From a bacterium (lineage in GTDB: Bacteria > Krumholzibacteriota > Krumholzibacteriia > LZORAL124-64-63), in NCBI GenBank assembly GCA_016719645.1, contig JADJYS010000001.1:134558-198557 (forward strand): DNA of 64,000 nucleotides. The letters run 5' to 3'. Every line of letters begins with the position of its first letter. The first letter of the stretch is position 1. The notes under the pieces are model-generated. The model did no database searches. It was not told where the DNA came from and was given only the letters and a program-made list of their open reading frames with translations. A program made the translations under genes and the position numbers. This document shows positions 9,956 to 57,468 of the stretch, piece after piece.

Positions 9956-10783
9956 GTGAACCCGAGCGCCGACGCGACCGCACCGCCCGCCCGCCGCCTG
10001 CGCGGGACGATCGCCGACGAGACCGCGGTCTCGTCGTCCATGCGCCGGCTCGACCTCGAACTGGAGGAACCCGTCGCCTTCCAGCCCGGCCAGTTCTGCA
10101 TGCTCAACCTCGCGGGCGAGCGGGCCCTGGTTTTCGGCCGCCCCTTCTCCCTGCTGGCGGCCTCGGGCCGGCGCCTCTCCCTGCTCTACAAGGTCGTCGG
10201 CCGCGGCACCGCCCGCCTGCGCGATGCCGGCGCCGGCGCACCGGTCACCTGCCTGACGCCCCTGGGCCGGCCGTTCCCCGCGCCGGACGAGCGGCCGCGC
10301 CTGCTGCTCGCGGGCGGGGTGGGCCTGCCGCCGCTGATCGCCTGGGCGGAGCGCTGGGGCCGCCCGCGGGACCTGCGCTGCGCCGGCGGCCGCGACGGCG
10401 ACGACCTGCCCCGCGGCCTGCTGGGGCCCGGCTGGCGCCTCAGCGCGGACCGGCCCGCCGGGGAGCCGGGGGGCCGGGCGGTCTTCGCCGGGAACGTGGT
10501 GGAACTGGCGCGCTCGCTGCTGCCCGCCGGGGCGCCGGCGCACGTGGTGCTGGCCTGCGGCCCGCTGCCCCTGCTGCGGGCGGCCGCGGGATTGGCCGAC
10601 GAGCGGGGCTGGGACTGCCTGGTCTCGGTGGAGGAGCGCATGGGCTGCGGCTACGGCGTGTGCCGGGGCTGCGTGGTCCCGCGCGCCGGCGACGACGGCT
10701 ACGCCACGGCCTGCAAGGACGGGCCGGTCTTCGACGCCCGCGCACTGGACTGGGCGAGGTTCGGCGGGGAGGGCGCGGCGTGA
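9956..10783 (+). CDS. pyrK: dihydroorotate dehydrogenase electron-transfer subunit
   Basis: FAD/NAD-binding ferredoxin-reductase fold with C-terminal 2Fe-2S Cys cluster (CGYGVCRGCVV). GTG start. GTGA overlap with pyrD. Confidence 0.85.
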   Translation: MNPSADATAPPARRLRGTIADETAVSSSMRRLDLELEEPVAFQPGQFCMLNLAGERALVFGRPFSLLAASGRRLSLLYKVVGRGTARLRDAGAGAPVTCLTPLGRPFPAPDERPRLLLAGGVGLPPLIAWAERWGRPRDLRCAGGRDGDDLPRGLLGPGWRLSADRPAGEPGGRAVFAGNVVELARSLLPAGAPAHVVLACGPLPLLRAAAGLADERGWDCLVSVEERMGCGYGVCRGCVVPRAGDDGYATACKDGPVFDARALDWARFGGEGAA

Positions 10784-11703
10784 CGAAGCTGCCGGACTGG
10801 CTCGCCTTCGATCCCCGCGGGCCGCTGCGGCTCGGCCCCCGCACCTTCCCCGGCCGGATCTGGACGGCGTCGGGCTGCTTCGGCTACGGCCTCGACGGCG
10901 CCGATCTCGGCACCGCCGGGGGCGGCTCGCCCTTCGACGGCCTCGGCGCCGTGGTCACCAAGACGGTCACGCCGCAGGCGCGCCGCGGCAACCCGCCGCC
11001 GCGGCTGTGGGAGACCGCGCACGGCGCGCTGAATTCCATCGGTCTGGAGAACGTCGGCCTCGCGAGGTTCGCGGACGAGATCGTGCCGGTCCTGGAGGCG
11101 CGCGGGGTGCCCTTCGTGGCCAGCCTCGCGGCCACCCGGCCCGAGGAGTTCGGGGACCTGGCCCGCCGCCTGGCCGCCGCGGCCGCCGGCGCGGCGCACT
11201 GGCACGGCGTCGAGCTGAACCTGAGCTGCCCGAACGTGGCCGAGGGCGGGGTCGACTTCGGCCGCGATCCCGAGACGGTGGAGCGCTGCGTCGCCGCGGC
11301 CCGCGAGCACCTGGCGGGGCGCGCCCTGCTGGCCAAGCTCACGCCCAACGTCGGCAGCATCGCCCGGCTCGCGGCGGCGGCGGCGCGCGGCGGCGCCGAC
11401 GGGGTGACCGCCATCAACACCCTGATCGGCATGGACGTGGACCTGCGCACGGGCGAGCCGGTCCTGCCGCGCCGCCGGGGCGGCTACAGCGGCCCCGCGC
11501 TGCTGCCGGTGGCGCTGGCGCGCGTCGACGAGATCGTGCAGGAGACGGGGCTGCCCGTGGTGGGCGTCGGCGGGGTCGCGACCCTCGAGGATGCGCTGAA
11601 GTTCTTCGCGGTGGGGGCGGTGGCCGTGCAGGTCGGCACGGCCCAGATGAGCGATCCCTTCGCCGCCGCGGCGGTGGCCGCGGCGCTGGCGGCGGCCGGC
11701 TAG
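10780..11703 (+). CDS. pyrD: dihydroorotate dehydrogenase catalytic subunit (class 1B)
   Basis: SGCFGYG, NSIGLEN, NLSCPN and NTL motifs of DHOD family 1. Confidence 0.9.
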   Translation: MTKLPDWLAFDPRGPLRLGPRTFPGRIWTASGCFGYGLDGADLGTAGGGSPFDGLGAVVTKTVTPQARRGNPPPRLWETAHGALNSIGLENVGLARFADEIVPVLEARGVPFVASLAATRPEEFGDLARRLAAAAAGAAHWHGVELNLSCPNVAEGGVDFGRDPETVERCVAAAREHLAGRALLAKLTPNVGSIARLAAAAARGGADGVTAINTLIGMDVDLRTGEPVLPRRRGGYSGPALLPVALARVDEIVQETGLPVVGVGGVATLEDALKFFAVGAVAVQVGTAQMSDPFAAAAVAAALAAAG

Positions 11704-12791
11704 TAGTCGTCCCTCGGCACGGCGTAGTCGTCGTCGTAGGGATCGTCCCCGCCATCCTTGAAGTCCTCGTCGAGGTCTTCCGGCAGGTTCTCCTCGCGGA
11801 TGCCGTCCGGGACGGGCGGCGTCTCCTTGCCCTCCTCGAGCTCCACCGGCAACCCGTCGGGGAAGTCGGCTTCCAGCAGGTCGATCAGCGAGGCCGTGTT
11901 GAGCAGGAGCTGCTCGGCCAGCCGCACGCCCAGCGCCGCCGCCTCGGCCGAGGGGCCGCGCAGCACCGACTGGTTCATCGAGCTGCCGCGCAGGGAGCCC
12001 ACGGCCCCGGTGACGATCAGGCTGTCCTCGCCCGCCTGGGCCAGCACGCCGAGGGGGCAGTCCTGGTCCGAGCAGATGCGCTCGCGGAAGGCGAGCTCGG
12101 CCGTCATCTCCGCGCGCGACTGGGGGGAGTCCACGGCCGCCGCCATGCCGAGCACCTCGCCGTCGCCGGCCCTGGCCACGATGGCGATGAGGCCCTGGCC
12201 GGCCCCGGGCAGGGTCATCTCCGGGAAGAAGATCTCCGTCACGATGTCCTGGACGCCCAGGCGTTCGGCGATGGCCGCGGGCAGGACCAGGCAGTCGACG
12301 GCCTCGTCCTGGAGGTACGCGTCCAGCGCCTCGACGGCGCCGCCGTAGAGGAGCTTCGGCTTCAGCTGCGGCCAGAGCTGGGTGATCTGGGCCATCGAGC
12401 GGCGGGACAGGACGCCGACGCGCGTGCCGTCCTCGAGGTCGTCCGCGATGCAGCCGCCCTTGTGCAGCAGGGCGTCGAAGGGCGTGTTGCGCTCGGGCAC
12501 CGCGGCGACCACCAGCCCCGCCGGCAGCGGCCGGACGATGTCCTCCGCGGCGATGTCCAGCAGCTGGAACTCCCCGGCCAGCAGGCGCGACAGCAGCATC
12601 TCGATCTCCGCCGCCGAGTGGGCGCAGTACAGCTCCGACGCGCTCTGCCGGTTGGTGCGGGGGTCCGAGACGGTGACCATGTCGAAGATGGCCTTGGGGT
12701 GCGCCGCGCGCAGCCTCTCGATGACCAGCAGGGTCTGGGCGCGGTTGAGGCGCCCGTCGAGGGTGCCCAGGGTGTAGGTGCCGCTGCTCAT
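11700..12791 (-). CDS. hemC: hydroxymethylbilane synthase (porphobilinogen deaminase) with acidic C-terminal tail
   Basis: LNRAQTLLVIERL, cofactor-Cys region ERICSDQDCPLG. About 45-aa D/E-rich C-terminal extension. Its stop shares the CTAG tetranucleotide with the pyrD stop. Confidence 0.85.
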   Translation of the reverse strand: MSSGTYTLGTLDGRLNRAQTLLVIERLRAAHPKAIFDMVTVSDPRTNRQSASELYCAHSAAEIEMLLSRLLAGEFQLLDIAAEDIVRPLPAGLVVAAVPERNTPFDALLHKGGCIADDLEDGTRVGVLSRRSMAQITQLWPQLKPKLLYGGAVEALDAYLQDEAVDCLVLPAAIAERLGVQDIVTEIFFPEMTLPGAGQGLIAIVARAGDGEVLGMAAAVDSPQSRAEMTAELAFRERICSDQDCPLGVLAQAGEDSLIVTGAVGSLRGSSMNQSVLRGPSAEAAALGVRLAEQLLLNTASLIDLLEADFPDGLPVELEEGKETPPVPDGIREENLPEDLDEDFKDGGDDPYDDDYAVPRDDY

Positions 12792-35484: not shown

Positions 35485-36885
35485 ATGACCCACCACCACG
35501 ACCCGGCCAGTCCGCCTGCCGACGGCCTGCGCGGCGACCCGCCGCCGCGGCACCTGCGCGTCCACACGCACCGCAACCTGCGCCTGGCCTCGATCGCGGC
35601 CATCGGCTTCGACATGGACCACACGCTGGCCCTCTACGACCCCCACGTCTTCGAGCAGCTCTGCTTCGAGATGGCCGTCGCGCTGCTCGTCGAGGCCAAG
35701 GGCTACCCCGAGAACCTGCGCGAGGTGGCCTACGACCGCACCGCCGTCACCCGCGGCCTGATCGTCGACCGCCGCCTGGGCAACCTGGTGAAGGTGGACG
35801 CCTACGGCTACGTGGCGCGCGTCCGCCACGGCGGGCGGCTGCTGACGAAGCTCGAGCGGCGGGAGGCCTACAAGCGGGGCCGCATCCGGCTGAGCCCGAA
35901 CCGCTACCGGGTCGTCGACACGCTCTTCGACCTGCCGGAGGGCTCGCTCTACTCGGCGCTGGTGGCCCTGAAGGACGGGCAGCCCGGGCTGCTGCGCCCG
36001 AGCTACAAGACGCTGTTCGACGACATCCGCGACGCCATCGACACCATCCACCGCGACGGCTCGCTGAAGCGCCGCATCATGGCCGACCTGCCCCGCTACT
36101 TCGTGCGCGACCCCCTGCTGGCGCCGACGCTGCGCCGCTTCCGCGAGGCGGGCAAGAAGCTGTTCCTGCTCACGAACTCCGAGCCCGACTACACCGGCGC
36201 CGTCATGGACTACATCCTCGGCGGCGAGGACGGCCCCTGGGACGACCTCTTCGACCTGGTCATCTGCACCGCGCGCAAGCCGGGGTTCTTCCTGCCCAAG
36301 GGCAAGGGGGAGCGCGTCCCGGCCGACACGGTGCCGCACCTGCCGAACCGCCGCGGGCATTGCTTCACCGGGGGCGACGCGTTCTACCTGGAGTCCAAGC
36401 TCGGCGCGATCGGCGACGCGATCCTCTACTTCGGCGACCACACCTACGGCGACATCCTGCGCAGCAAGAAGTCGGTCGGCTGGCGCACCGCCATGATCGT
36501 GCCGGAGGTGGAGGAGGAGATCCTCGCCGCGGAGCCGCTGCGCGGGGCGATGGACGGCCTCGAGGAGGTCGAGGACTCGCTGGAGGACCTGGGCCTGGAG
36601 CGCGACCACCTGCTGTCGCTGCCCGACCACGACCCCCTGGTCGTGCAGGAGCTGCAGGACCGCATCCAGGCCAGCCTGGGGCGGCGGGCCCAGCTGCAGA
36701 AGCGGATCGCCGCGGTCTACAATCCCTGGTGGGGCTCGATCTTCCGCGAGGGGCGGGCGGTCAGCCGCTTCGGCGCCCAGATCCGCGACGTCGCCTGCAT
36801 CTACACCAGCCGCGTCAGCAACCTGTCGCGCTACCCGGTGCAGAAGTTCTTCTCGAGCACGGGCGAGCGGATGCCGCACGAGTGA
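35485..36885 (+). CDS. HAD-superfamily 5'-nucleotidase (cN-II/PF05761-like)
   Basis: N-terminal DMDHTL HAD motif I. Long family-typical body (YFGDHTYGDI motif IV region). Confidence 0.75.
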   Translation: MTHHHDPASPPADGLRGDPPPRHLRVHTHRNLRLASIAAIGFDMDHTLALYDPHVFEQLCFEMAVALLVEAKGYPENLREVAYDRTAVTRGLIVDRRLGNLVKVDAYGYVARVRHGGRLLTKLERREAYKRGRIRLSPNRYRVVDTLFDLPEGSLYSALVALKDGQPGLLRPSYKTLFDDIRDAIDTIHRDGSLKRRIMADLPRYFVRDPLLAPTLRRFREAGKKLFLLTNSEPDYTGAVMDYILGGEDGPWDDLFDLVICTARKPGFFLPKGKGERVPADTVPHLPNRRGHCFTGGDAFYLESKLGAIGDAILYFGDHTYGDILRSKKSVGWRTAMIVPEVEEEILAAEPLRGAMDGLEEVEDSLEDLGLERDHLLSLPDHDPLVVQELQDRIQASLGRRAQLQKRIAAVYNPWWGSIFREGRAVSRFGAQIRDVACIYTSRVSNLSRYPVQKFFSSTGERMPHE

Positions 36886-36897
36886 CGCGGGCCGCCG

Positions 36898-38292
36898 CTA
36901 CTTCCAGTGCTCGCTCAGGAACTGGTCGACCTCGGGGATGCCGCCCTGGTACACGAGGTACCCGTTGTAGGGCTCCCGCTCGGTGATGTCGCGCGCGATC
37001 GGCGTCAGCATGATGCGGGCGACCTCGGCGGGGTCCTGCGTCTGGCCCAGCGCCCAGCCCAGCTTCATGTAGGCCACCTCGGGCAGCATGTTGGCCGCGG
37101 GCACGACGCCCAGCTCCATGATCTCGCGCCCGGTCTCGTACACGTACATCTGCACGAAGCCCCAGAGCGTCTGCACGGTCATGAACATCGAGACGCCCGC
37201 CTTGTGCGCCCGCTCCAGCGCGGGGTACAGGGGGCGGTTGACGTGGCCCAGGCCCGTGCCCGCGATGATGATCCCCTTGTAGCCGTGGTCGACCAGGCTG
37301 TCGATGACGTCCGGCTTCATGCCCGGGTAGTAGTAGACCAGCGAGACCCGGTCGTCGAAGACGGCCTTGACCGTGACGTCGCGGTCGGCGCGGCGGCGGC
37401 TGTAGTCGTTGCGGAACGGCGTGACGCCGTCCTGGTCGACCTTGCCCAGGGGGACGTCGCTCAGGGTGCGGAAGGTCGAGCGGTACGAGGAGTGCATCTT
37501 GCGCACGCGGGTGCCCTGGTGCAGCAGGCCGTACTGGTCGCTGGTGGGGCCGAACATGCAGACCATCACCTCGGCGAGGTCGCTGGTCGCGGCCGTGCGC
37601 GCGGCGTTCATGAGGTTGATGGCGGCGTCGGAGCTGGGCCGGTCGCTCGAGCGCTGGCTGCCGACCATGACGATCGGCACCGGCGAGCCCTGGACCATGA
37701 AGGAGAGGATGGCCGCGGTGTGGTGCATGGTGTCGGTGCCGTGCCCCACCACGATGCCGTCGACGCCGGCGGCGATCTCGCGCCCGATGGCCTCGGCCAG
37801 GCCGATCCACTGCTCGGGCCCCATGTTCTCGCTGAACACGCCGTAGAGCTTCTCGGTCTCCAGGTTGCAGACGTCCGCCAGCTCGGGCACCGAGCCGTAC
37901 AGCTCGCCGGGCGAGAAGGCGGGGATCACGGCGCCGGTGCGGTAGTCCAGGCGCGAGGCGATCGTGCCGCCGGTGCCCAGCAGCTTCACGCGGGGCTTGC
38001 CCTCGGAGTAGGGGAAGGCCTTCTCCGGGATCTTGTAGTTGGCGACCTTGCGCCCGTGGACCGTGATCTCCTGCATGCCCCCGACGTGCAGGCCGATGTT
38101 GTAGCCGGTCGACATCTTCAGCACGACGTGCTCGGGGTCGGCCATCTCGTTGCGCGGCAGGATCAGGCCGCGGAACTCGCCCCGGTCGGTGCGGATCGTG
38201 ACGTCGCTCCACACCAGCGCGTCGTGCTTCTTCAGCACGGCCAGCGCCGGGTCGCGGTAGCCCTTGTAGTCCTCGTTGCCGTTCCCGCTCAC
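36898..38292 (-). CDS. gatD: archaeal-type Glu-tRNA(Gln) amidotransferase subunit D (asparaginase-like)
   Basis: N-terminal GatD-specific domain (EHVVLKMSTGYNIGLHVGG) plus L-asparaginase fold (LGTGGTIAS, GIVVGHGTDTM). GTG start with GTGA overlap to gatE stop. Confidence 0.85.
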   Translation of the reverse strand: MSGNGNEDYKGYRDPALAVLKKHDALVWSDVTIRTDRGEFRGLILPRNEMADPEHVVLKMSTGYNIGLHVGGMQEITVHGRKVANYKIPEKAFPYSEGKPRVKLLGTGGTIASRLDYRTGAVIPAFSPGELYGSVPELADVCNLETEKLYGVFSENMGPEQWIGLAEAIGREIAAGVDGIVVGHGTDTMHHTAAILSFMVQGSPVPIVMVGSQRSSDRPSSDAAINLMNAARTAATSDLAEVMVCMFGPTSDQYGLLHQGTRVRKMHSSYRSTFRTLSDVPLGKVDQDGVTPFRNDYSRRRADRDVTVKAVFDDRVSLVYYYPGMKPDVIDSLVDHGYKGIIIAGTGLGHVNRPLYPALERAHKAGVSMFMTVQTLWGFVQMYVYETGREIMELGVVPAANMLPEVAYMKLGWALGQTQDPAEVARIMLTPIARDITEREPYNGYLVYQGGIPEVDQFLSEHWK

Positions 38293-40205
38293 GACGTCGC
38301 CTCCTCGAGCCAGGCGGCCGCCTGGCGTCCCGACACCCGGCCGCGCAGGGCGGGCATCACCCGGCCCATGATCGCGCGCCGCCGCGGCCCGTCCGCCTCC
38401 GGCAGGCCGGACGGCGGCGCGGCGGCCGCCTCGGCCCAGGCCGCGTCGAAGGCCGCGCGGGCCTCGCGCGGCGGCAGCGCGGCGGCGGGATCGCCGTCCG
38501 ACCACCAGATCGCTTCGGGCAGGACGCGGCCCGCGCGCAGCTCGTCCAGGGCGCGCTCCCACCAGGCGCCCGCCGCGGGCACGCTCGACGGCCGCGGCAG
38601 GTCGCGGTCCAGCAGCAGCGAGGCGAGCCCGGTCGCGGACAGGGGGCCGTCGCCGAGGCGGGGGTGCAGGTGGGCGTAGAGGTCGTAGGCCGGGTGCCGG
38701 GCCAGCCGGTCGGCCAGGTCCTCGCCCACGCCGTCGCGGCGCAGCCGCTCGCGGCGCTCCCAGGGCGGCGGCGGCAGGTCGGCGGCGAGGCGCGCGAGGC
38801 GGTCCGCGGCCAGCACGACCGGGGGCAGGTCGGTGTCCGGGTACATGCGGCTGGGGCCGGGCAGCACGCGCTCGAAGCCCGTGGTGTCGTCGGGCAGGGC
38901 CTGGCGGGTCTCCTCGGGCACGCCCTCGCAGGCCTCGCGCGCGCGCAGCAGGATCTCGCCCGCCGCGGTGCGGGCGTCGCGCTCGTCGCCCCAGACCACC
39001 ATGATGGGCGTGTCGCGCCCGACGCCGCAGGCGCGCTCGATGCGGCCCCACTCCGCCGACGAGAGCGTGGAGATCTCGCTCGTCGAGCAGATGACGTTCG
39101 GCAGCGTGTCGATGCAGGCGACCACGCGCACGCGGTCCGAGAATTCCTTCAGGAAGCGGGTGTGGGGCTGGGTCGGGGTGGAGACGAGCCCCTCGAAGCC
39201 GGGCAGGGGCACGGCCATGACGCGCGCGCCGCCCGCGACGGCCTCGCGCAGGTAGCTCCCCTCGGCGCCCTGGACGATCGAGGTCACGTCGCGCGAGGCG
39301 TCCGGCAGGGATTCCGCGGTCACGCCGCGCTCGCGCAGGACGTCGCGGATGGCCAGCAGGCTGCGCTGGCGCAGGGCCTCGTTGTGCACCAGCCGCGGGA
39401 TGCGCTTGATGCTCGGGACGCCCTTGATCTCGACGCGGGAGCCGCCGCGGATGCTGACGTTCACGTCCTGCCGCGCCGCGCCGACGCCCGTGCGCACCAG
39501 GCCGCTGGCGCGCGCCAGGCGGCGCAGCTCGTCGCAGACGGCGGCGACGTCCCAGGGGGTGTGCATGTCCGGATCGGTGACGGTCTCGATCAGGGGCATG
39601 CCGAGCCGGTCGGTGCGGTAGACGCGGGAGTGGCCGCGGTCGCTGACCTCGCGGCAGGAATCCTCCTCGATGGACAGCTGGCGGATCCCGATGCGCCGCC
39701 CGCGGTAGGGGACCGCGCCCTGGACGCCGATGATCGCCGTGCGCTGGAAGCCCGTCGGGATGCTGCCGTCGAGGTACTGCTTGCGGGCGATGTGGATCTC
39801 GTCGACCACCTGCAGGCCGAGCATCAGCGAGACCCGCACCGCGTGGTCGAGCGCCTCGGGGTTCATCTCGAAGGGCGGGGCGTCGTCCATCTCGTAGGTG
39901 CAGACCGTCTCGTCGTTCAGCAGGTAGGTGATGTTCTTGCGGGTCTTGAACTCCATCAGCGCGGTGCCGTCGTAGTCCCCCATCTCGCTGAGGGTCGGGC
40001 GCATGTGGCGCAGGATCTCCGCGTGGTGCTCGCCGGTGTAGCGGCCGGCGGGGCAGCGGCAGAAGAGCTTCTTCGAGGTCTGCAGCTGCTGGTGCACCTC
40101 GAGTCCGGACATCAGCCCGAGCGACTGGTATTCGTCCTCGCCCCAGGCTCCCAGGACGGGCAGCGGGGCGCCCTGCAGGGGATCGTAGCGGGAGACGTCG
40201 TTCAT
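38289..40205 (-). CDS. gatE: archaeal-type Glu-tRNA(Gln) amidotransferase subunit E
   Basis: GLEVHQQLQTSKKLFCRCP N-terminus, GatB/GatE catalytic core, C-terminal GatB/YqeY-like tail. About 638 aa as in archaeal GatE. Confidence 0.85.
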   Translation of the reverse strand: MNDVSRYDPLQGAPLPVLGAWGEDEYQSLGLMSGLEVHQQLQTSKKLFCRCPAGRYTGEHHAEILRHMRPTLSEMGDYDGTALMEFKTRKNITYLLNDETVCTYEMDDAPPFEMNPEALDHAVRVSLMLGLQVVDEIHIARKQYLDGSIPTGFQRTAIIGVQGAVPYRGRRIGIRQLSIEEDSCREVSDRGHSRVYRTDRLGMPLIETVTDPDMHTPWDVAAVCDELRRLARASGLVRTGVGAARQDVNVSIRGGSRVEIKGVPSIKRIPRLVHNEALRQRSLLAIRDVLRERGVTAESLPDASRDVTSIVQGAEGSYLREAVAGGARVMAVPLPGFEGLVSTPTQPHTRFLKEFSDRVRVVACIDTLPNVICSTSEISTLSSAEWGRIERACGVGRDTPIMVVWGDERDARTAAGEILLRAREACEGVPEETRQALPDDTTGFERVLPGPSRMYPDTDLPPVVLAADRLARLAADLPPPPWERRERLRRDGVGEDLADRLARHPAYDLYAHLHPRLGDGPLSATGLASLLLDRDLPRPSSVPAAGAWWERALDELRAGRVLPEAIWWSDGDPAAALPPREARAAFDAAWAEAAAAPPSGLPEADGPRRRAIMGRVMPALRGRVSGRQAAAWLEEATS

Positions 40206-40304
40206 GGGCGTCCTGTGCGGCTGGAGTGGAGGGAACGTGCGGCGCGGGACCAATATAGGGGGCGCGCTACGGGGGGCCAACGTTGTTTTCCCGTCGGCAG
40301 GAGG

Positions 40305-40335
40305 TTGTGAAATCTCGTCAACCAGCATCTTGACG
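40305..40335. promoter_or_regulatory. candidate Rex operator/inverted repeat in the gatE-rex divergent region
   Basis: TTGTGAAatctCGTCAAC matches half of the TTGTGAA-N4-TTCACAA Rex box. It overlaps a perfect IR cgtcaa-N8-ttgacg. Confidence 0.3.
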
Positions 40336-40434
40336 GGCATCCGGCGGCGGGAGTAGATTGGTCCTGTCAAAGACCTAACAAGAACGCTCGTGATCCGATC
40401 GGCGCCGCGCCGCGGCCGGCGAAGGGAGATCCCG

Positions 40435-41109
40435 GTGAGGGTCGTCAACACCAAGGGCAAGAAGTTCCGCGTTCCCGACGCCACCATCCTGCGTCTGCCG
40501 CTGTACCTGGACAAGCTCATCCTGCTGCAGCAGGCGGGCGTCAAGGAAGTCTCGTCGCGGCAACTCGCGACCTCCCTGGACATCAAGGCCAGCCAGCTGC
40601 GGCACGATTTCCACTACTTCGGGGGCTTCAGCAAGCCGGGCCGTCCCTACCAGGTCGACAAGCTGGTGCCGGCCCTCGAGGAGATCATCGGGGTCGACGT
40701 GCCGGTGCCCATGATCATCGTGGGAGCCGGCCACCTCGGCCAGGGCCTGGCCAACTACCGCAACTTCGAGCGCCTGGGCTTCCCGCTGCGCGGGATCTTC
40801 GACGTGGACCCGAAGCTCGTCGGCCTGGAGATCCGCGGCGTGCCGATCCGGCCGCTGTCCGAGATGCCCGCCTACGTGCAGGAGAACGGCATCCGGGTCG
40901 GCGTGCTGACCGTGCCGGTGGGGGTGGCCCAGGACGTCGCCAACCAGATGGTCGCCGCCGGCGTGGTCGGCATCTGGAACTTCACGCCGACCGACATCCG
41001 CACCCCGCCGCAGGTCATCGTGCGCAACGAGCGGCTGGCGGTGGGCCTGATGTGCCTGAGCTTCAAGGCCAAGCGGGTCGGCCAGGCCGAAGAGCTGAAG
41101 CAGGACTGA
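40435..41109 (+). CDS. rex: redox-sensing transcriptional repressor Rex
   Basis: RLPLYL...wHTH N-terminus and Rossmann NADH-sensing domain (IVGAGHLG). GTG start after GAAGGGAG RBS. Confidence 0.85.
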   Translation: MRVVNTKGKKFRVPDATILRLPLYLDKLILLQQAGVKEVSSRQLATSLDIKASQLRHDFHYFGGFSKPGRPYQVDKLVPALEEIIGVDVPVPMIIVGAGHLGQGLANYRNFERLGFPLRGIFDVDPKLVGLEIRGVPIRPLSEMPAYVQENGIRVGVLTVPVGVAQDVANQMVAAGVVGIWNFTPTDIRTPPQVIVRNERLAVGLMCLSFKAKRVGQAEELKQD

Positions 41110-41117
41110 CCCGCAGG

Positions 41118-42110
41118 TCACCAGCGGATCAGGTTGGCGCCCCAGGTGAAGCCCGAGCCGAACGCCACCAGCACCAGCAGGTCGCCGCGTTCGAGCCGGC
41201 CCTCCCGCGTCGCCTCGCTCAGCGCGATGGGGATCGACGCCGCCGTCGTGTTGCCGTAGCGGTGGATGTTGCTGAAGACCTGCTCCGCGGACAGGTCGAA
41301 GCGCTTGGTCACCGCCTCGGTGATGCGCAGGTTGGCCTGGTGGGGGATGACCAGCTTGACGTCCTGCTTCGCGACCCCGCCCGCCTCGAGCACCTCCTGG
41401 ATCGCCTCGCAGAAGCGCCGCACCGCGTGCGTGTAGACGGCCCGGCCGTTCATGTGCGGGAAGTGGCGGCCCTCGGCGATCTGCGCGGCCGTGATGCGGC
41501 CCGGCTGGCTGCCCGACGGCAGCTCGCACCACAGCTCGCGGGCGAACTCGCCCTGGCTGTGCAGGACGCTGGCCAGCACGTCGCCCGGCCCCTCGCCCGC
41601 CTGCAGCACGACGGCGCCGGCCCCGTCGCCGAACAGCACGGCGATGTCGCGGCCGCGGTCGGAGATGTCCAGCGAGGTGGAGTGGATCTCCGTGCCGACG
41701 ACCAGCACGGTGCGCGCGAGCCCGGCCTTGATGTGGGCCGCGGCCGTGGCCAGGCCGTAGACGAAGCCGGTGCACTGGTTGCGGATGTCCAGGGCGCCGA
41801 CCGTCCGTGCGCCCAGCGCGTGCTGCAGCAGGACGCCGTTGCCCGGGAAGAAGCAGTCGGGGTTGAGGGTCGCGCAGATGATCAGGTCGAGATCCCCGGC
41901 CGCGAGGCCCGCGTCCTGCAGCGCCATGCGCGCGGCGCCGGCGGCGAGGTCGTCGAGCGTCGTGCCGGGGGTGATCCAGCGGCGCTCGCGGATCCCGGTG
42001 CGCTCGACGATCCACTCGTCGCTGGTGTCCATCCACTGCGCCAGGTCGTGGTTGGTCACGACGCGCTCGGGCACGCAGTGCCCCGTCCCGATCACCTTCG
42101 CACAGGTCAC
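41118..42110 (-). CDS. fabH: 3-oxoacyl-ACP synthase III
   Basis: Cys-His-Asn triad context (NQCTGFVYGL, HQAN, GNTTAASIP). GTG start. Confidence 0.9.
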   Translation of the reverse strand: MTCAKVIGTGHCVPERVVTNHDLAQWMDTSDEWIVERTGIRERRWITPGTTLDDLAAGAARMALQDAGLAAGDLDLIICATLNPDCFFPGNGVLLQHALGARTVGALDIRNQCTGFVYGLATAAAHIKAGLARTVLVVGTEIHSTSLDISDRGRDIAVLFGDGAGAVVLQAGEGPGDVLASVLHSQGEFARELWCELPSGSQPGRITAAQIAEGRHFPHMNGRAVYTHAVRRFCEAIQEVLEAGGVAKQDVKLVIPHQANLRITEAVTKRFDLSAEQVFSNIHRYGNTTAASIPIALSEATREGRLERGDLLVLVAFGSGFTWGANLIRW

Positions 42111-49591: not shown

Positions 49592-50662
49592 ATGCGCGGC
49601 ACGAAGAACGTCCTGGTGGTGGGGACCGGGACCATCGGCGAGCCCCTGATCGGGCTGCTGAGCCATTTCAAGGACCAGTTGGGCGTCGACGAGGTGCTCT
49701 TCCACAAGAACACGCCGCTGGTCACCGACCGCAGCAAGGTCAAGGACCTCATCCGGCGCGGCGCGCGCATCGTCTCGGACAAGGATCACGTCGCGGGTTT
49801 CAAGGACATCGGCATCCAGGTCGACACCACGACCGAGGACGCGCTGCAGGCCGCGCGGGTCGTCATCGACTGCACGCCCCTGGGCAACGACATGAAGGAG
49901 AAGTGGTACCGGTCCTACGAGGGTTCGACCGACCTCTTCATCGCCCAGGGCAGCGAGTTCGGCTTCGGCAAGCAGTACGCGCGCGGGATCAACGACGAGG
50001 TGCTCGACCACGCGACCGACAAGTACCTGCAGGTGGTCAGCTGCAACACCCACAACCTGTCGCTGATCATCAAGATGCTCGGGCTCGGCGACGAGGGCCC
50101 CGACAACCTGGTGCAGGGGCGCTTCGTGTGCATCCGCCGCGCCAACGACATCAGCCAGGACGGCAAGTTCGTGCCGAGTCCCGAGGTCGGCTCGCACGGC
50201 GACGCCGTCTTCGGCACCCACCACGCCCGCGACGCCTGGCACCTGTTCAACACCCTGGGCTACGACCTGAAGCTGTTCTCCTCGGCCCTGAAGCTCAACA
50301 CCAACCTGATGCACACCCTGCAGTTCCACCTGACGGTGCGCAAGCCGGTGACCCACGCCGAGCTGATGCAGCGCTGCGAGGCCAACGACCGCGTGGCGAT
50401 GACCCACAAGAAGACGGCCAACTCGATCTTCTCGTTCGGGCGCGACCACGGCTTCTACGGCCGCATCCTCAACCAGACCGTGATCCCCTACAACGGGATC
50501 CACGTCTCGCAGGACGGCCGCGAGATCACCGGCTTCTGCTTCACCCCCCAGGACGGCAACAGCCTGCTGAGCTCGGTCGCCGCCACCGTCTGGGCGCTCT
50601 ACCCGGACACCTACGACAAGATCATCCAGTGCCTGCGGCCCTACTTCTTCGACGAGGTGTAG
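49592..50662 (+). CDS. type II (archaeal-type) glyceraldehyde-3-phosphate dehydrogenase homologue
   Basis: VLVVGTGTIGEPL N-terminal Rossmann. VVIDCTPLG and YLQVVSCNTHNL align with the archaeal GAPDH IDCTPEG / VVSCNTTGL catalytic-Cys motif. 356 aa. GAGGAGG RBS. Confidence 0.65.
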   Translation: MRGTKNVLVVGTGTIGEPLIGLLSHFKDQLGVDEVLFHKNTPLVTDRSKVKDLIRRGARIVSDKDHVAGFKDIGIQVDTTTEDALQAARVVIDCTPLGNDMKEKWYRSYEGSTDLFIAQGSEFGFGKQYARGINDEVLDHATDKYLQVVSCNTHNLSLIIKMLGLGDEGPDNLVQGRFVCIRRANDISQDGKFVPSPEVGSHGDAVFGTHHARDAWHLFNTLGYDLKLFSSALKLNTNLMHTLQFHLTVRKPVTHAELMQRCEANDRVAMTHKKTANSIFSFGRDHGFYGRILNQTVIPYNGIHVSQDGREITGFCFTPQDGNSLLSSVAATVWALYPDTYDKIIQCLRPYFFDEV

Positions 50663-50743: not shown

Positions 50744-52219
50744 CTAGTCGGCGGGGGTCGGCGCGAGCTGCGCGATCAGGTCGCGGTAGGTCTGCTGCGC
50801 CGGCAGCTTGGCGTCGGCGCGGGCCAGCAGCGGCTGCACCTTCGCCAGGGCCTGGCCGGCGAGTTCGGCCTGGCCGAGTTCGAGGGCCGACCGCGCCAGC
50901 AGCAGCAGGGGGCGGATGCGCGCGGGGTTGGTCTCGAGGATCCGCTTCGCGTTCTCGAGCGCCGGGCCGGGCCGGCCGGCGGCGAGGTAGCTCTCGCCCT
51001 GGCGCCAGAGGAACCACCAGCGCTCGTGCGCGGGTCGCGACAGGCTGGAGTCGAGCATCAGCTGCCACTCGTCGATCGCCTTCTCGTGGTCGCCGTCGCG
51101 GGTCGCCAGCATGGCCCGGAACTGGTGCTCGAGGTTGTCGAGCTGATCGCGGTAGTTCTTGAAGGCGAAGGCGTCGCTGCGGCGCGCCTCGGCCAGGAAG
51201 CCGGCGATCGCGGCGTTCGCCTCTTCGCGGCGGTCCTGCATCGCCAGCTGGATCGCCCGGTAGAAGTCGCACAGGAAGGCGTCCGGGTACTTCCGCTGGT
51301 AGGACTCCATGGCGCGCAGGGCCTCGTCGTAGAGCTCGTGGGTGTAGTACATGCGGATGAGCGTCTCGTCGAGCTCGCGCTCCTGCGGCAGGCCCGCCAG
51401 CGCGGCGCGGATGCTCTCGAGGATCTTCTCGCCCTTGGCGATCATGCCCTGCTCGAGGTACAGCTCGCCCAGGTTGATCTGCGAGTAGTGGAAGTCGGGC
51501 TGGGCGTCCAGGGCGGCCGCGAACTCGCGCTCGGCGTCCGCGTAGTCGCCCTTCCAGCTCAGCACCTCGCCCAGCGAGTCGTGGGGGTTGGCCAGCCCGG
51601 GCGCCAGGAAGGCGTACTTGCGCAGGTGGGTGACGGCCTGCTCGTAGTCGCCGCGTCCCGCGGCGAGGTAGCCGAGCATGTTGTAGGCGGGAGCGTGGTT
51701 GGGCTCGATGGCCAGGATCTGCTCGTAGATGCGCTGGCAGTCGTCCCACTTGCCGGTCTGATAGAGGACGCTGGCCTTGGCCGACAGGGCCATCAGGTCC
51801 GTCGGCTGCTCGGCGAGCACGTAGTCCAGCAGCGAGTCGCGGACCTGGTCGCCCGGCTTGCGGTAGGCGAGCAGCAGCAGCTGCAGCTTCGCGCGCTCGA
51901 GCGCGTTGGGCAGGCGGGCGGCGAGGCTGTCGGCGAGGGCGGCCTCCCGGTCGCTGTCGGCCTGGTCGCCGAAGCGCAGCGAGAGCTGCGAGAGCAGGGC
52001 GTGGGCCGCCGCGAACTCGCCGTCCAGGGCCACCGCGCGCCGCAGCGAGGAGTCGGCCTGGGAGAACTGGAACGCGTTCAACTGGGAGTAGCCGCGCTCG
52101 AACAGCTTGTAGGCCTCCCCCGAGCGCGTGGTGAACTCGCGCTTCGGCCCCCCCAGGAACAGCAGGGCCAGGGCGACCAGCGCCAGGGCGGCCAATCCCA
52201 TCAGGACGGATCTCTTCAT
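50744..52219 (-). CDS. TPR-repeat protein with N-terminal signal/anchor
   Basis: MKRSVLMGLAALALVALALLFLGG hydrophobic N-terminus, then more than 8 TPR-like repeats. ATGA overlap with the upstream PP2C-protein stop. Confidence 0.7.
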   Translation of the reverse strand: MKRSVLMGLAALALVALALLFLGGPKREFTTRSGEAYKLFERGYSQLNAFQFSQADSSLRRAVALDGEFAAAHALLSQLSLRFGDQADSDREAALADSLAARLPNALERAKLQLLLLAYRKPGDQVRDSLLDYVLAEQPTDLMALSAKASVLYQTGKWDDCQRIYEQILAIEPNHAPAYNMLGYLAAGRGDYEQAVTHLRKYAFLAPGLANPHDSLGEVLSWKGDYADAEREFAAALDAQPDFHYSQINLGELYLEQGMIAKGEKILESIRAALAGLPQERELDETLIRMYYTHELYDEALRAMESYQRKYPDAFLCDFYRAIQLAMQDRREEANAAIAGFLAEARRSDAFAFKNYRDQLDNLEHQFRAMLATRDGDHEKAIDEWQLMLDSSLSRPAHERWWFLWRQGESYLAAGRPGPALENAKRILETNPARIRPLLLLARSALELGQAELAGQALAKVQPLLARADAKLPAQQTYRDLIAQLAPTPAD

Positions 52220-54864
52220 GACTCGTTCTCCGCTCGGGTGAGGGGGGGCAGGCCCCGCTGTGCGTACGCAACGGCGTCCGTCGGGTTGCCGGCGGCGGTG
52301 TGGAGGGCCTTCAGGACCAGCAGGGTCACGTCGTCGTCCGCCTGCTCGCGCCCGCTGAAGGCGCGCAGCTCGGCGTTCATGATGTCGAGCAGGTCGCCCG
52401 CCCCGATCCCGTGGTGTTCGGACAGCAGGCGCTCCACGCGCGCGGTGCCGAACTCCTCGTCGGCGTGGTCGACGGTCTCGGTCAGCCCGTCGGTGTAGAG
52501 GAAGAGCATGTCGCCGGGGCCGAAGTCGATCGTCTCCTCCTCGTAGCTCCCGAAATCGAAGGCGCCCAGGGGCAGGCCGCCCTTGTCCAGCTGGAGCAGG
52601 GTCCCGTCGGCCCGGCGCAGGATCGGGGCGTTGTGGCCGCCCGAGCTGTAGCGCAGCCGCCGGCGCACGGGGTCCACGAAGGCCAGGAACAGGGTGGCGA
52701 AGTGGGTCGGGTCGGTGCTCGCGTACAGGTAGAGGTTGACCCGGTCGAGGATCTCGCCCGGGGAGTCGCTGATGGCGCAGTGGGCGCGCAGCGAGGCCTG
52801 GAGGCTCGAGGCCAGCAGGCTGGCGGGGATGCCCTTGCCGCTGACGTCGCTGATGATGACCACGAGCTGCCCGTCGTCCCGCACGATCAGGTCGTAGTAG
52901 TCGCCGCTGACCTCGGCGCTGTTGAGGTTGCAGGCGGCCAGCTCCAGGCCGCGCACCTCGGGCAGGCGTTCGGGCAGCAGCCGGCTCTGGATCGAGCGCG
53001 CCAGGGCGAGCTGCTCCTCCAGCTTCTGCTTCTTCAGCTCCTCCTCGTAGAGGCGGCTGTTCTCGATCTGCAGGGCCATCTGCCCGGCCACCAGGGTGAG
53101 CAGCTCGAGGTCCTGCAGCTGGTAGTCGTCGCCGCCGTGCTTGGGCGGCAGGGCGAAGAGCCCGACCAGGCGGCCGCGCACCAGCATCGGCACCAGCAGC
53201 GCGATCCCCAGGCCGGCCAGGGCGTCCCGCTCCTGCAGCCGCTGCAGCAGCTCGGCCTGCTCGCGGGTCGCGGCCGCGCGGACGTCCAGGCGGACCTGGC
53301 TGCGCTCGACCCAGTAGGGCTCGTTGAACTGCGCGAGGCGCAGGGCCGTGGCCGCGAGCCTCAGCGTCGCGGGGCACTCGTCGCAGCCGTCCGGGCCGGC
53401 GCGGGGCCCGTCGGCGGCGGGGTGGGCGACGACCCCGGCCAGCAGCCACTCCTCGCCGGCGGGGCCCGGCCGGTAGACCGCGAGGCGCGGCAGGTCGACC
53501 AGCTGGCAGAGCCGCCCGCCGATGCGCCCGATCAGCGCGTCCTGCTGGATGATCTGGGGGATCTCCAGCCCGAACTCCTGCAGGGCGCCGGCCAGGTTGC
53601 CGCGGCTGCGGAAGAAGCGGCGGTCCAGCTGCCCCTGCAGGTGGACGCGGGCCGGCCACAGCGAGGCGGCCGCGGCCAGCGTCGCGGCGACCGTGGCGAC
53701 CTGGCTGGTCTGCGAGCTGAGGCGCAGCAGCAGCGCGCCCAGGCCCAGCACGAACCCCAGGTAGAGCAGGAACAGGCCGCCGGTCAGCAGGGAGTAGACG
53801 AGGCTGCGCTTGAGCAGCACCTCGATCTGCATCACGCGGTAGCGGGCGATGCAGTAGCTGAACGACAGCGGCACGGCGATCATCGGCACCGTGCCGATGA
53901 AGGCGAGCGTGTCGCCCACGCGGTCGCCCGGCAGCACGGTGAAGATCAGGAAGGGCAGGATGCCCGCCAGCGTGCCGACGGTCAGGATGCGGATGCGGCG
54001 GCGCTGCAGCGGGTCGCGGAACTGGTAGTAGCTGTGCAGCAGGGCGACGGCGCCGGCCGAGAAGAACGTGCCCAGGACCAGCCAGCGCGTGTTGTAGATC
54101 CGCGGGGCGTGGGAGCCGAAGAACTGGTCCATGGTGAACTGCAGGTAGAAGACCAGCGGCAGCACGTAGAGCAGGGGCTCGAGCCAGGGCCGCCGCGTGA
54201 CGATGATCTTCTTGTCCGGGAACACCAGGAAGAAGTGCAGGAACAGCGCCGGCAGCAGGAAGCGCGCGAGCGCGCCGGCGTTGCGGGTGATGATGTCGCC
54301 CCAGAAGTAGCTCGACCGGTTCAGGTCGGTCATGAAGAACACGGCGAACAGCAGGCACATCCTGAAGAACAGCCGCGCGGCCTGCGACTCCCGCCCGCGC
54401 AGGTAGATCATCAGGCCGATCAGCCAGTAGGCCAGGGAGAGGAACCCGTAGTACGGGTAGAAGCGGTCGGCGGTGCGGAACGCGCTCAGCCGCACCGGCA
54501 CGCGCAGGACCTTGCCGTCGCGCATGATCAGGTAGGGCACCAGCGAGCCGACCTGCTGCCGGCCGAGCAGCTGGGCGGCCTCCTGGGGCGAGGCGACCAG
54601 GGTGGTGCCGATGCCGATGATCTCGTCGCCCGGCTGCAGCAGGTTGATCCCGCCGTCGGCCCGCGGCGGCACCTCCAGCACGGTGACCGTCGAGCGGCCC
54701 AGCAGCCAGACCGTGCCGTCGTTGGGGCGGATCTTGCCGGCGTCCATGGCGGAGAACAGGCAGAGCCCGAACGTGGCGAGCGCCCCGAGCAGGTGGGCCC
54801 AATGGCCGACGGCGCCGCCGCGGGGCGCTGCGGAAAACTGGAAGTTGGACTCTTCCGTCGCCAT
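52216..54864 (-). CDS. multidomain signalling protein: PDZ - polytopic membrane domain - GAF - PP2C/SpoIIE Ser/Thr phosphatase
   Basis: N-terminal TM plus PDZ-like (GDEIIGIG). About 8 hydrophobic helices. GAF (LVGLFALPPKHGGDDY). C-terminal PP2C (SGDYYD, DVSGKG, LYTDGL). 882 aa. Confidence 0.8.
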   Translation of the reverse strand: MATEESNFQFSAAPRGGAVGHWAHLLGALATFGLCLFSAMDAGKIRPNDGTVWLLGRSTVTVLEVPPRADGGINLLQPGDEIIGIGTTLVASPQEAAQLLGRQQVGSLVPYLIMRDGKVLRVPVRLSAFRTADRFYPYYGFLSLAYWLIGLMIYLRGRESQAARLFFRMCLLFAVFFMTDLNRSSYFWGDIITRNAGALARFLLPALFLHFFLVFPDKKIIVTRRPWLEPLLYVLPLVFYLQFTMDQFFGSHAPRIYNTRWLVLGTFFSAGAVALLHSYYQFRDPLQRRRIRILTVGTLAGILPFLIFTVLPGDRVGDTLAFIGTVPMIAVPLSFSYCIARYRVMQIEVLLKRSLVYSLLTGGLFLLYLGFVLGLGALLLRLSSQTSQVATVAATLAAAASLWPARVHLQGQLDRRFFRSRGNLAGALQEFGLEIPQIIQQDALIGRIGGRLCQLVDLPRLAVYRPGPAGEEWLLAGVVAHPAADGPRAGPDGCDECPATLRLAATALRLAQFNEPYWVERSQVRLDVRAAATREQAELLQRLQERDALAGLGIALLVPMLVRGRLVGLFALPPKHGGDDYQLQDLELLTLVAGQMALQIENSRLYEEELKKQKLEEQLALARSIQSRLLPERLPEVRGLELAACNLNSAEVSGDYYDLIVRDDGQLVVIISDVSGKGIPASLLASSLQASLRAHCAISDSPGEILDRVNLYLYASTDPTHFATLFLAFVDPVRRRLRYSSGGHNAPILRRADGTLLQLDKGGLPLGAFDFGSYEEETIDFGPGDMLFLYTDGLTETVDHADEEFGTARVERLLSEHHGIGAGDLLDIMNAELRAFSGREQADDDVTLLVLKALHTAAGNPTDAVAYAQRGLPPLTRAENES

Positions 54865-56184: not shown

Positions 56185-57468
56185 CTAGAGGTACTGCAGG
56201 GCCAGCGCGCCGCTGCCGAGCAGGCCGTAGCTGAGCCAGGCCGGGTCCTCGGCGCCGCTGCGGTCGCGGCAGGCGAGGGCCGCGGCGCGCAGCGAGCTCG
56301 CGACGGTCGCGCCGGCGGCCAGGGCCCGGTAGAAGTCGCCCGCGAAGGCGCGGGCCCGCGGCTGCGACACCGCCAGGTGCGGACCCACCACGGCCGAAGC
56401 TCCCGACATCAGGAACCGCGGGCCGAAGGACGTCAGCCCCAGGTAGCTGTTGGAGAAGACCAGCGGCGGCGTGGCGGCGTGACGCGCCAGATCCTCGGGC
56501 GACACCGGCCCGTCCTCCAGCAGCCAGTGCGCCTGCGCTCCCGACGCCGCATGAGCGTCGCCGCCCCCGGACCACGGGTGCAGGCGGCCCTGTTCGGCCC
56601 GCTCGGAGATGCGGTCCAGCAGGGCGGTGACCGGATCCACGCCGACGGGTTCCAGCTCCAGCTCCTCCTGCGCCGACATCATGAGGTCGCGGGCCAGGGA
56701 CTCCCAGCCCGAGAGCTGCGTCGTGGCCGACGCCAGCTGGGGCGCGGCCGTGGCGCCGCTGAAGTGGAAGCCCTGGTAGCGGCGGCCGGTGCGGGCCAGG
56801 CGGCCCGGGGTCATCGCGCCCGCCGGCGACTCGAGCCAGGCCAGCCTCTGACCGTCGCCCAGCCGGGCCAGGGCCTCGTCCAGCATGGCGCGCTCGAGGC
56901 GCGCCTGCACCGTGCCGTCGCCGCGCCCGTGCCCGTCGAGGAACAGGACGCCGGGGTCGGCGCAATCCTCGGGGCGGAAACGCCGCACGACCTCGCCCAG
57001 CCGCGACGGGCCCTGCGTCTGCTCCGTCTGGATCTGGTCCTCCCAGCGCCGGGACCAGGCGCCGCGCCGGGCGGACTTGAGCGAGCTGCGCCGGTCGGCG
57101 CAGATCGGGGCCATCTCCAGCACGAAGCGGATGCCGTTGTGCAGGCAGGACCAGGGCAGGACCAGGTCGTCGGTCGCCACCACCAGGTGGTAGCCGATCG
57201 GGGTCTCGGCGGCGGCGCCGGCCAGGCTGGGGGAGGCGGCGCCCACGTCCGGACGCTCGGGGGCGAAGGCCGCGGGGTTGCCGGTCTGGGCGGCCCGGAA
57301 CAGCAACTGCCCGAGCTCGGTCATCGCCGCGTGGACCGCCGGGCTGTCGAGCCCCTCGGTCTGCTGCAGGCGCACCAGCCGCTCGCGCTGGGCGTGCGCG
57401 CGGTCGAGCAGACCGCGCCGGGTGGTCGCGTCCTGGCCGCGAGTCAGATCGATATCCAGCCACTGCAC
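56185..57468 (-). CDS. CHAT-like (caspase-fold) domain protein with catalytic Cys apparently replaced (pseudo-protease?)
   Basis: His-Gly motif VLFLDGHG. The position of the usual CHAT Cys reads LVFSNSYLG. C-terminal ...AWLSYGLLGSGALAL resembles the CHAT C-terminal strand. GTG start. Confidence 0.5.
   Translation of the reverse strand: MQWLDIDLTRGQDATTRRGLLDRAHAQRERLVRLQQTEGLDSPAVHAAMTELGQLLFRAAQTGNPAAFAPERPDVGAASPSLAGAAAETPIGYHLVVATDDLVLPWSCLHNGIRFVLEMAPICADRRSSLKSARRGAWSRRWEDQIQTEQTQGPSRLGEVVRRFRPEDCADPGVLFLDGHGRGDGTVQARLERAMLDEALARLGDGQRLAWLESPAGAMTPGRLARTGRRYQGFHFSGATAAPQLASATTQLSGWESLARDLMMSAQEELELEPVGVDPVTALLDRISERAEQGRLHPWSGGGDAHAASGAQAHWLLEDGPVSPEDLARHAATPPLVFSNSYLGLTSFGPRFLMSGASAVVGPHLAVSQPRARAFAGDFYRALAAGATVASSLRAAALACRDRSGAEDPAWLSYGLLGSGALALQYL

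Follow-up and report, generated by a model that had tools for sequence, protein, structure and literature searches.

The described systems closest to the gene pair analysed here, gatE-gatD, are two amidotransferases that act on tRNA-bound glutamate, GatDE of archaea and GatCAB of bacteria. The pair lies in a 64,000-nucleotide (nt) stretch of DNA from a member of the bacterial phylum Krumholzibacteriota (GenBank assembly GCA_016719645.1, contig JADJYS010000001.1, positions 134,558 to 198,557 of the forward strand), which is called the window below. On Glu-tRNA(Gln) both systems catalyse the same overall reaction, and GatB is a paralogue of GatE with a cradle and a YqeY-like tail. They differ in the glutaminase: GatDE has the asparaginase-type GatD, and GatCAB has the amidase GatA with its Ser-cisSer-Lys triad; GatCAB moreover requires GatC and is without the AspRS-like insertion. 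Archaea split the work between the two, with GatDE for Gln and GatCAB for Asn. Glutamine is the amide donor for the GatD glutaminase (PMC2330236). His15, Glu157 and Glu184 of Methanothermobacter thermautotrophicus GatE are Mg2+ ligands, and their mutation abolishes both kinase and transamidase activity (PMC2330236). The tail module of archaeal GatE binds the tRNA D-loop, and archaeal GatDE reads this loop together with the acceptor pair A1-U72 of tRNA(Gln), whereas bacterial GatCAB reads U1-A72 (PMC2330236). A 2008 review named GatDE 'an archaeal signature protein' (PMC2330236), and a 2022 review still assigned it to archaea only.

The pair in the window has the subunits, domain order and catalytic residues of archaeal GatDE, as known from M. 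thermautotrophicus (2D6F) and Pyrococcus abyssi (1ZQ1), with near-identical domain lengths; identity over the aligned parts is 44-46% for GatD and 35-37% for GatE. It differs from archaeal GatDE in its bacterial host, in an insertion and a tail beyond the Pfam models GAD and GatB_Yqey, and in an N-terminal extension of ~24 amino acids (aa) before the first conserved block of GatE; its tRNA partner is likely a bacterial tRNA(Gln). We conclude, at a probability of about 80%, that gatE-gatD encodes a working tRNA-dependent amidotransferase of the GatDE type in a bacterium, which would carry out the canonical ATP-dependent amidation of Glu-tRNA(Gln) and would descend from one old archaeal transfer.

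Results

Both subunits were judged by the curated equivalog cut-offs of NCBI. GatE (638 aa; its sequence includes GLEVHQQLQTSKKLFCRCP) scored 470.1 bits with NF003107 (cut-off 456) and 418.7 bits with TIGR00134 (cut-off 319.55), and GatD scored 499 bits with NF003217 (cut-off 310) and 497 bits with TIGR02153 (cut-off 324). Pfam search identified GatB_N in GatE, and GatD_N, Asparaginase and Asparaginase_C in GatD. GatB models gave GatE 69-132 bits against cut-offs of 315-680, the best of them reaching 132 against 338; with these scores and the insertion domain present, a GatB paralogue was ruled out. AnsA, a free-standing type I L-asparaginase of ~330 aa, was ruled out for GatD by the extra GatD_N domain, the higher GatD-equivalog score and the coupling to gatE. 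The asparaginase subfamily model TIGR00519 does match GatD at 378 bits, below the equivalog score of 499, because the asparaginase fold is common to both. No gatA-like gene was found in the window or in any related locus by tblastn with Bacillus GatA and GatB, the related loci being a small sample of ~1.2 Mb in which, as in the window, the gatE genes were the sole matches. The window GatE is 100% identical to a protein from an NCBI metagenome-assembled genome (MAG) that lies on a 655-kb contig and is already named GatE (P0001).

The closest solved structures to GatE were 1zq1_C (E 2e-97) and 2d6f_C (E 1e-95). An AlphaFold2 (AF2) model of GatE was obtained with a predicted local distance difference test score (pLDDT) of 82 and a predicted template modelling score of 0.79. 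Foldseek with this model placed 1zq1_C and 2d6f on top, followed by GatB chains; weak matches to AspRS structures (E 0.01-0.03) are consistent with an AspRS-like insertion in GatE. In the 2d6f_C alignment, counted by hand, His38, Glu180 and Glu207 of GatE align with His15, Glu157 and Glu184 of M. thermautotrophicus, and these Mg2+ ligand positions are conserved in 140-142 of 143 GatE/GatB sequences.

The insertion sits at the same position in the chain in bacteria (median 134 aa) and archaea (129-134 aa). Neither GAD nor GatB_Yqey was detected in GatE by a Pfam search of the protein, and the NCBIfam models cease to match at about residue 516, leaving 120 aa that are also outside Pfam models. 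HHalign aligned the bacterial with the archaeal GatE tails over 166 columns with a probability of 99.9% (E 2e-36). The tail is all-helical in the AF2 model (pLDDT ~90), its motif IMGRVMPALRGRVSG matches IMGRVMAKVRGKADG of 1zq1_C, and the C-terminal motif (IMGRVMxxxRGR / MGxVMxxLRGR) is kept. Between bacteria and archaea, GatE identity is 41-51% in the cradle (51% in its C-terminal part), 23% in the insertion and 19% in the tail, with domain lengths unchanged; within the bacterial clade, the mean identity of the tail is 20%. These differences suggest that the chemistry has been conserved, and that the modules holding the tRNA have drifted most.

For GatD, the closest solved structures were 1zq1_A (E 2e-118) and 2d6f_A (E 4e-112). 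We placed its catalytic residues by the numbering of Escherichia coli AnsB (Thr12, Thr89, Asp90 and Lys162). Across 27 GatD sequences there is no variation at the corresponding nucleophile (Thr110) or at the triad Thr186-Asp187-Lys265. The column of residue 107, the first Thr of TGGT, holds Cys in the Thor, Odin and Acidilobaceae GatD (L088, L089 and L092), and Thr in every bacterial GatD and in Heimdall GatD (Thor, Odin and Heimdall stand for Thorarchaeota, Odinarchaeota and Heimdallarchaeota MAGs); the second, catalytic Thr110 does not vary.

The two genes are co-oriented and overlap by four nucleotides, GTGA, which end gatE and begin gatD, and this overlap likely couples their translation. 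Bacterial genes enclose the operon. A 5'-nucleotidase gene converges on gatD, with 12 nt between the two stop codons, and rex diverges from gatE across a spacer of 184 nt. Elsewhere in the window are pyrB, a gene for a dihydroorotase-like amidohydrolase (pyrC-like), dus, and genes for an Amidase_3 peptidoglycan amidase, ETF, AhcY and a SpoIIE-type phosphatase. GC content is 67-77% throughout the window. GC content at third codon positions (GC3) is 1.00 in gatD and 0.98 in gatE, compared with 0.91-0.99 in the 51 other called genes; all 464 codons of gatD end in G or C, the most extreme GC3 among the 53 called genes of the window. The codons of the pair have been ameliorated to the host. As far as sequences can show, archaeal contamination was ruled out by the host-like GC3 and the bacterial flanks on the same contig.

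These results bear out much of an earlier note on this DNA, made from the letters alone, which had claimed that the genes are GatD and GatE rather than GatB/AnsA paralogues, that the minus-strand pair has a GTGA stop/start overlap, that a cN-II-type 5'-nucleotidase gene and a divergent rex flank it (family models match both) and that its GC content and codon bias match the host. The note had further called the context bacterial and diderm. FabH, Rex, Amidase_3, PyrB, the pyrC-like protein and Dus agree with the first word; for the second, the window offers a weak BamD/YfiO-like match and nothing else.

GatE relatives are widespread in bacteria. A scan of one genome per species gave at least 582 genomes with a GatE relative (domain checked for part of them), and the best 80 of these were all bacterial MAGs, some of whose submitter taxonomic labels are clearly unreliable. 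The best 120 database clusters were all 59-91% identical to the window GatE, and several are named Krumholzibacteria or Krumholzibacteriia. Identity to GatE was 97% and 90% in two unclassified or Latescibacterota-labelled MAGs, ~50-70% in Krumholzibacteriia-like MAGs, and 48-59% in MAGs labelled Calditrichota/Caldithrix, Chloroherpeton, Ignavibacteriaceae, Kapabacteria, Phycisphaerae, Neomarinimicrobiota, KSB1, Aminicenantales, Elusimicrobiota and others. Wherever a bacterial locus had room for it, gatD nearly always lay 3' of gatE, at a distance of a few to ~60 nt, and GatD is 70-98% identical across bacterial loci. At least 20 Krumholzibacteriia-like MAGs, assembled independently, show the same arrangement; synteny beyond gatDE (fabH and other genes) is conserved within this group and not wider. 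Relative to the closest relative (L001), the ratio of non-synonymous to synonymous substitution rates is 0.11 for gatD and 0.34 for gatE, values that are inflated by the extreme GC3 bias. Two deep members of the bacterial clade also have bacterial neighbours: one lies beside an HU-family gene (Bac_DNA_binding), clpS and a Kdo-transferase-family gene (Glycos_transf_N), and the other beside murC, murD, mraZ, rsmH and lnt. At locus L085, gatE occupies 10001-11716 and its product has 571 aa. Hence gatDE is not restricted to Archaea, given the bacterial host context and at least 80 bacterial MAGs. Since 'archaea-only' is a statement about distribution and no biochemical criterion, its failure does not count against membership in GatDE.

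With HMMER, 1.84 billion cluster representatives were searched exhaustively for GatE, and the scores already separated the bacterial sequences from the archaeal ones: full-length bacterial-type GatE scored 428-773 bits, the Heimdallarchaeota sequence 396 bits and other full-length archaeal sequences at most 351 bits. A neighbour-joining tree of GatE was built from corrected p-distances (143 sequences, 623 columns, 3 GatB outgroups, 200 bootstraps). The 57 bacterial-type GatE were monophyletic in 199 of the 200 bootstraps. Their sister was Heimdall in 116/200, a group drawn from six Asgard-like sequences (the Heimdall, Thor and Odin ones and three unnamed) in most other replicates, and a large mixed group in 11/200. 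Bacterial GatD was monophyletic in all 500 neighbour-joining replicates and grouped with Heimdall GatD in 448/500 when asparaginase outgroups were included and in 491/500 when they were left out; the mean identity of Heimdall GatD is 51% to bacterial GatD, compared with 43.5% to other archaeal GatD.

The nearest archaeal relatives in both trees are thus the GatDE of Asgard MAGs (Heimdallarchaeota, Thorarchaeota, Odinarchaeota), whose loci lie in archaeal contexts (PolD DP2, a TFIIB-type zinc ribbon, the S13-S4-S11 gene order). Asgard GatE still matches GatB_Yqey, and in two of three cases GAD as well, whereas the window GatE matches neither. The gene order in Thor and Odin is gatE-gatD, as in bacteria, with a 4-nt overlap in Odin; it is gatD-gatE in two Thermoprotei-type loci (Thermoprotei and Acidilobaceae), and the Heimdall genes are divergent. 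Rooted on GatB, the bacterial clade is nested among archaeal GatE, which makes transfer from archaea to bacteria the simpler direction. The simplest history would be a single ancient transfer in this direction, followed by long residence in bacteria. The bacterial clade consists mostly of lineages of the Fibrobacterota-Chlorobiota-Bacteroidota (FCB) group together with Phycisphaerae, and an Asgard-like origin is probable. Host-like GC3, conserved pairing across loci and the single bacterial clade ruled out a recent transfer.

The earlier note had asked for such phylogenies with archaeal and bacterial homologues, and its reading of the acquisition as old rather than recent agrees with them, with the host-like codon use and with a gatE-gatD order conserved across many bacterial lineages. 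Its suggestion that the pair is peculiar to one lineage is no longer tenable, as its bacterial clade is large and spans many phylum-level labels. The note would have given up its case had the trees placed the genes in a large, already described bacterial clade of known function; the large clade exists and database records name its proteins GatE, but we found no paper that describes it.

The neighbourhood of gatE in other genomes was also analysed (Table 1). In 8 of 80 bacterial loci, gatE is preceded on its own strand by a glnA gene (Gln-synt_N and Gln-synt_C), with 44-112 nt between the end of glnA and gatE. These glnA-gatE-gatD loci are labelled Krumholzibacteriota or Phycisphaerae or are unlabelled, so that at least two phylum-level labels are represented; the arrangement is not present at the window locus. 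Because GatD uses glutamine as amide donor, this neighbourhood fits the canonical function, as circumstantial evidence. The 64-kb window has no aminoacyl-tRNA synthetase gene and no gatCAB. Its tRNA genes, as predicted by ARAGORN, are those for Leu, Pro, Arg and His and no others, and ARAGORN found no tRNA(Gln) gene in the window or in 60 related loci. The sole tRNA gene adjoining gatDE in the 60 loci scanned is a bacterial-type tRNA-Glu(CUC) gene with G1-C72 and a large D-loop, which lies 178 nt upstream of gatE (L058, 9748-9822).

A consensus promoter scan of positions 36700-40600 returned two sites where 0.1 were expected; one is the candidate promoter of gatE-gatD and the second faces rex. 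Between these divergent promoter-like sites lies TTGTGAAATCTCGTCAAC (40306-40323), whose TTGTGAA we take to be one good half-site of a Rex operator. A Rex operator between rex and gatE was rejected, as the half-site stands alone and a palindrome search gave one poor match compared with 8.8 expected by chance.

Side observations concern other genes of the window. A 356-aa open reading frame (ORF) at 49592-50662 (+) has a strong coding signal (GC3 0.99) and no Pfam match at E <= 1e-5. The segment 44225-47547 (+) encodes a 450-aa protein that resembles the middle of the putative selenate reductase subunit YgfK (240 bits, cut-off 835) and carries 4Fe-4S motifs; its gene overlaps by 4 nt the gene of a 657-aa protein with weak phosphoglucomutase-like matches, an unusual pair. 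A large GAF-SpoIIE (PP2C-type) phosphatase is encoded at 52216-54864 (-) near a CHAT (caspase-like) domain protein at 56185-57468 (-), both downstream of TPR proteins.

Table 1. Positions of gatE, gatD, their domains and neighbouring features (window coordinates unless a locus is named)
Feature	Position	Strand	Basis
gatE, Glu-tRNA(Gln) amidotransferase subunit E (tRNA-dependent kinase/amidase)	38289-40205	-	ORF and translation: ATG start, 638 aa and stop
gatD, Glu-tRNA(Gln) amidotransferase subunit D (asparaginase-type glutaminase)	36898-38292	-	Translation: GTG start, 464 aa and stop
GTGA overlap, gatE TGA stop / gatD GTG start	38289-38292	-	Read from sequence: ...ACG TCG TGA = GTG AGC...
GatE cradle (catalytic) domain, N-terminal part, aa 25-290	39336-40133	-	Alignment to 2d6f_C
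GatE AspRS-like insertion domain, aa 291-424	38934-39335	-	Alignment to 1zq1_C and 2d6f_C spans the region
GatE cradle domain, C-terminal part, aa 425-465 (GVPEETRQALPDD...RMYPDTDLPP)	38811-38933	-	Aligned to 1zq1_C and 2d6f_C
GatE helical and YqeY-like tail domains, aa 466-638	38292-38810	-	HHalign to archaeal tails
GatD-specific N-terminal domain, aa 30-78	38059-38205	-	PF18195 GatD_N, 46 bits, cut-off 25.7
GatD asparaginase/glutaminase fold (N and C domains), aa 101-428	37009-37992	-	PF00710 190 bits, PF17763 112 bits
Candidate sigma-70-like promoter of gatE-gatD (TTGGCC, 17 nt spacer, TATATT)	40252-40280	-	Consensus match, ~45 nt upstream of gatE start
HAD-IG (cN-II type) 5'-nucleotidase gene (context)	35485-36885	+	TIGR02244 313 bits, PF05761 420 bits
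rex, redox-sensing repressor (context)	40390-41109	+	NF003995 212 bits; PF06971, PF02629
fabH (context)	41118-42095	-	Next after rex
glnA upstream of gatE	L038 8461-9936; L040 8433-9938; L052 2730-4235; L055 1199-2620	that of gatE	Gln-synt_N and Gln-synt_C
glnA upstream of gatE, further loci	L057 8350-9957; L064 1-576; L077 8408-9889; L079 2-802	that of gatE	Gln-synt_N and Gln-synt_C
Archaeal loci compared	L088 6001-9302; L089 6001-9290; L090 4643-7917; L092 4656-7926; L087 4392-7941		

Discussion

The co-oriented, overlapping genes, adjacent in nearly all bacterial loci, suggest that GatD and GatE form one alpha2-beta2 enzyme. We infer its activity and substrate from archaeal GatDE. In such an enzyme, the GatD dimer would hydrolyse glutamine (or asparagine) by means of Thr110 and the Thr186-Asp187-Lys265 triad, and the ammonia released there would pass to GatE. 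The GatE cradle, with His38, Glu180 and Glu207, would phosphorylate the glutamate on Glu-tRNA(Gln) at the expense of ATP and then amidate it to Gln-tRNA(Gln), while the insertion and tail domains would hold the tRNA.

Several observations weigh against a canonical GatDE of archaeal descent. Archaeal GatDE recognises A1-U72, and bacterial tRNA(Gln) carries U1-A72 for GatCAB (PMC2330236). The tRNA-binding modules are the most diverged parts of GatE (insertion 23%, tail 19%, neither GAD nor GatB_Yqey), so its specificity may have changed. Neither the window nor the related loci (~1.2 Mb) yielded gatCAB, glnS, asnS or gltX; the sample is too small to show absence, as ~0.3 copies of any given single-copy gene are expected in it. 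The trees are distance trees with moderate support for the exact sister, one Heimdall sequence and nine archaeal GatD. Finally, gatE is without gatD within 10 kb downstream in three loci (L072, L073 and L085); the two genes have become separated in some genomes, or else gatD has been lost.

Among the alternatives, a changed specificity fares best, and we consider it unlikely. Bacterial GatDE would then act on Asp-tRNA(Asn) as well or instead, and would replace GatCAB wholly in lineages from which gatCAB was lost. U1-A72 is recognised by bacterial GatCAB in tRNA(Gln) and in tRNA(Asn) alike (PMC2330236), and an enzyme retuned to bacterial tRNA(Gln) could take both. In addition, the insertion domain of archaeal GatE was modelled to clash with the non-discriminating AspRS (PMC2330236), and this domain, without GAD and at 23% identity, is the second most diverged region here. 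However, the insertion is present at full length, the recurrent neighbour is glnA and not asnB or aspS, and archaeal GatDE is specific for Glu-tRNA(Gln) (PMC2330236); nothing speaks directly for the change.

A more radical departure, in which the pair has left tRNA altogether and applies its glutaminase-kinase chemistry to another carboxylate substrate, seems very improbable to us. The fast evolution of the tail even inside the bacterial clade (20% mean identity) and the three loci with gatE and no adjacent gatD could be explained in this way, but both tRNA-binding modules are full length and clearly homologous to the archaeal ones, the C-terminal motif MGxVMxxLRGR is retained, the scores are at equivalog level and GatD is extremely conserved. 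An artefact, be it an archaeal fragment mis-assembled or mis-binned or GatB/AnsA paralogues under a wrong label, has nothing in its favour beyond the prior expectation that GatDE is archaeal and can practically be dismissed, because bacterial genes are contiguous on both sides in the 64-kb window, gatDE has the GC3 of the host, the arrangement recurs in at least 20 independent Krumholzibacteriia-like MAGs, GatB models stay far below cut-off and the GatD-specific N-terminal domain is present.

We therefore retain the canonical Glu-tRNA(Gln) amidotransferase as the best account of the window pair. Its diverged insertion and tail may reflect retuning to bacterial tRNA. We put forward a broader proposal, tentatively and at somewhat less than even odds: that a bacterial radiation comprising Krumholzibacteriota, other FCB lineages and Phycisphaerae makes its Gln-tRNA(Gln) by a GatDE obtained long ago from an Asgard-like archaeon, its insertion and tail retuned from the A1-U72 of archaeal tRNA(Gln) to bacterial tRNA(Gln), either as the sole route, GatCAB having been lost, or in an archaeal-style split with GatCAB.

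The enzyme kind is known and the genes are already labelled, as NCBI and JGI/IMG records name these bacterial proteins GatE; the existence of a large bacterial branch seems to be unacknowledged. No paper that connects these bacterial phyla with GatDE or either of its subunits turned up in a full-text literature search. Amidotransferases go unmentioned in the Caldithrix genome paper, and the supplementary files of the papers on Krumholzibacteriota, on the deep aquifer and on Caldithrix contain no gat annotations.

The supposed absence of GatDE from bacteria underlies two arguments, one on why archaea never acquired GlnRS and the other on the amidotransferases of the last universal common ancestor (PMC2330236 and the later review). 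With a bacterial GatDE clade of this size, age and degree of conservation, the archaea-only premise fails. The clade also provides a natural experiment, in which a tRNA-dependent enzyme has moved between domains with differing tRNA(Gln) identity elements. Should GatCAB have given way to GatDE in these phyla, Gln-tRNA, and possibly Asn-tRNA as well, would be made there by a route that departs from the standard bacterial scheme. If the bacterial radiation does rely on GatDE, the enzyme would leave the list of archaeal signature proteins. Statements in databases and reviews that GatDE is 'found only in Archaea' need revision.

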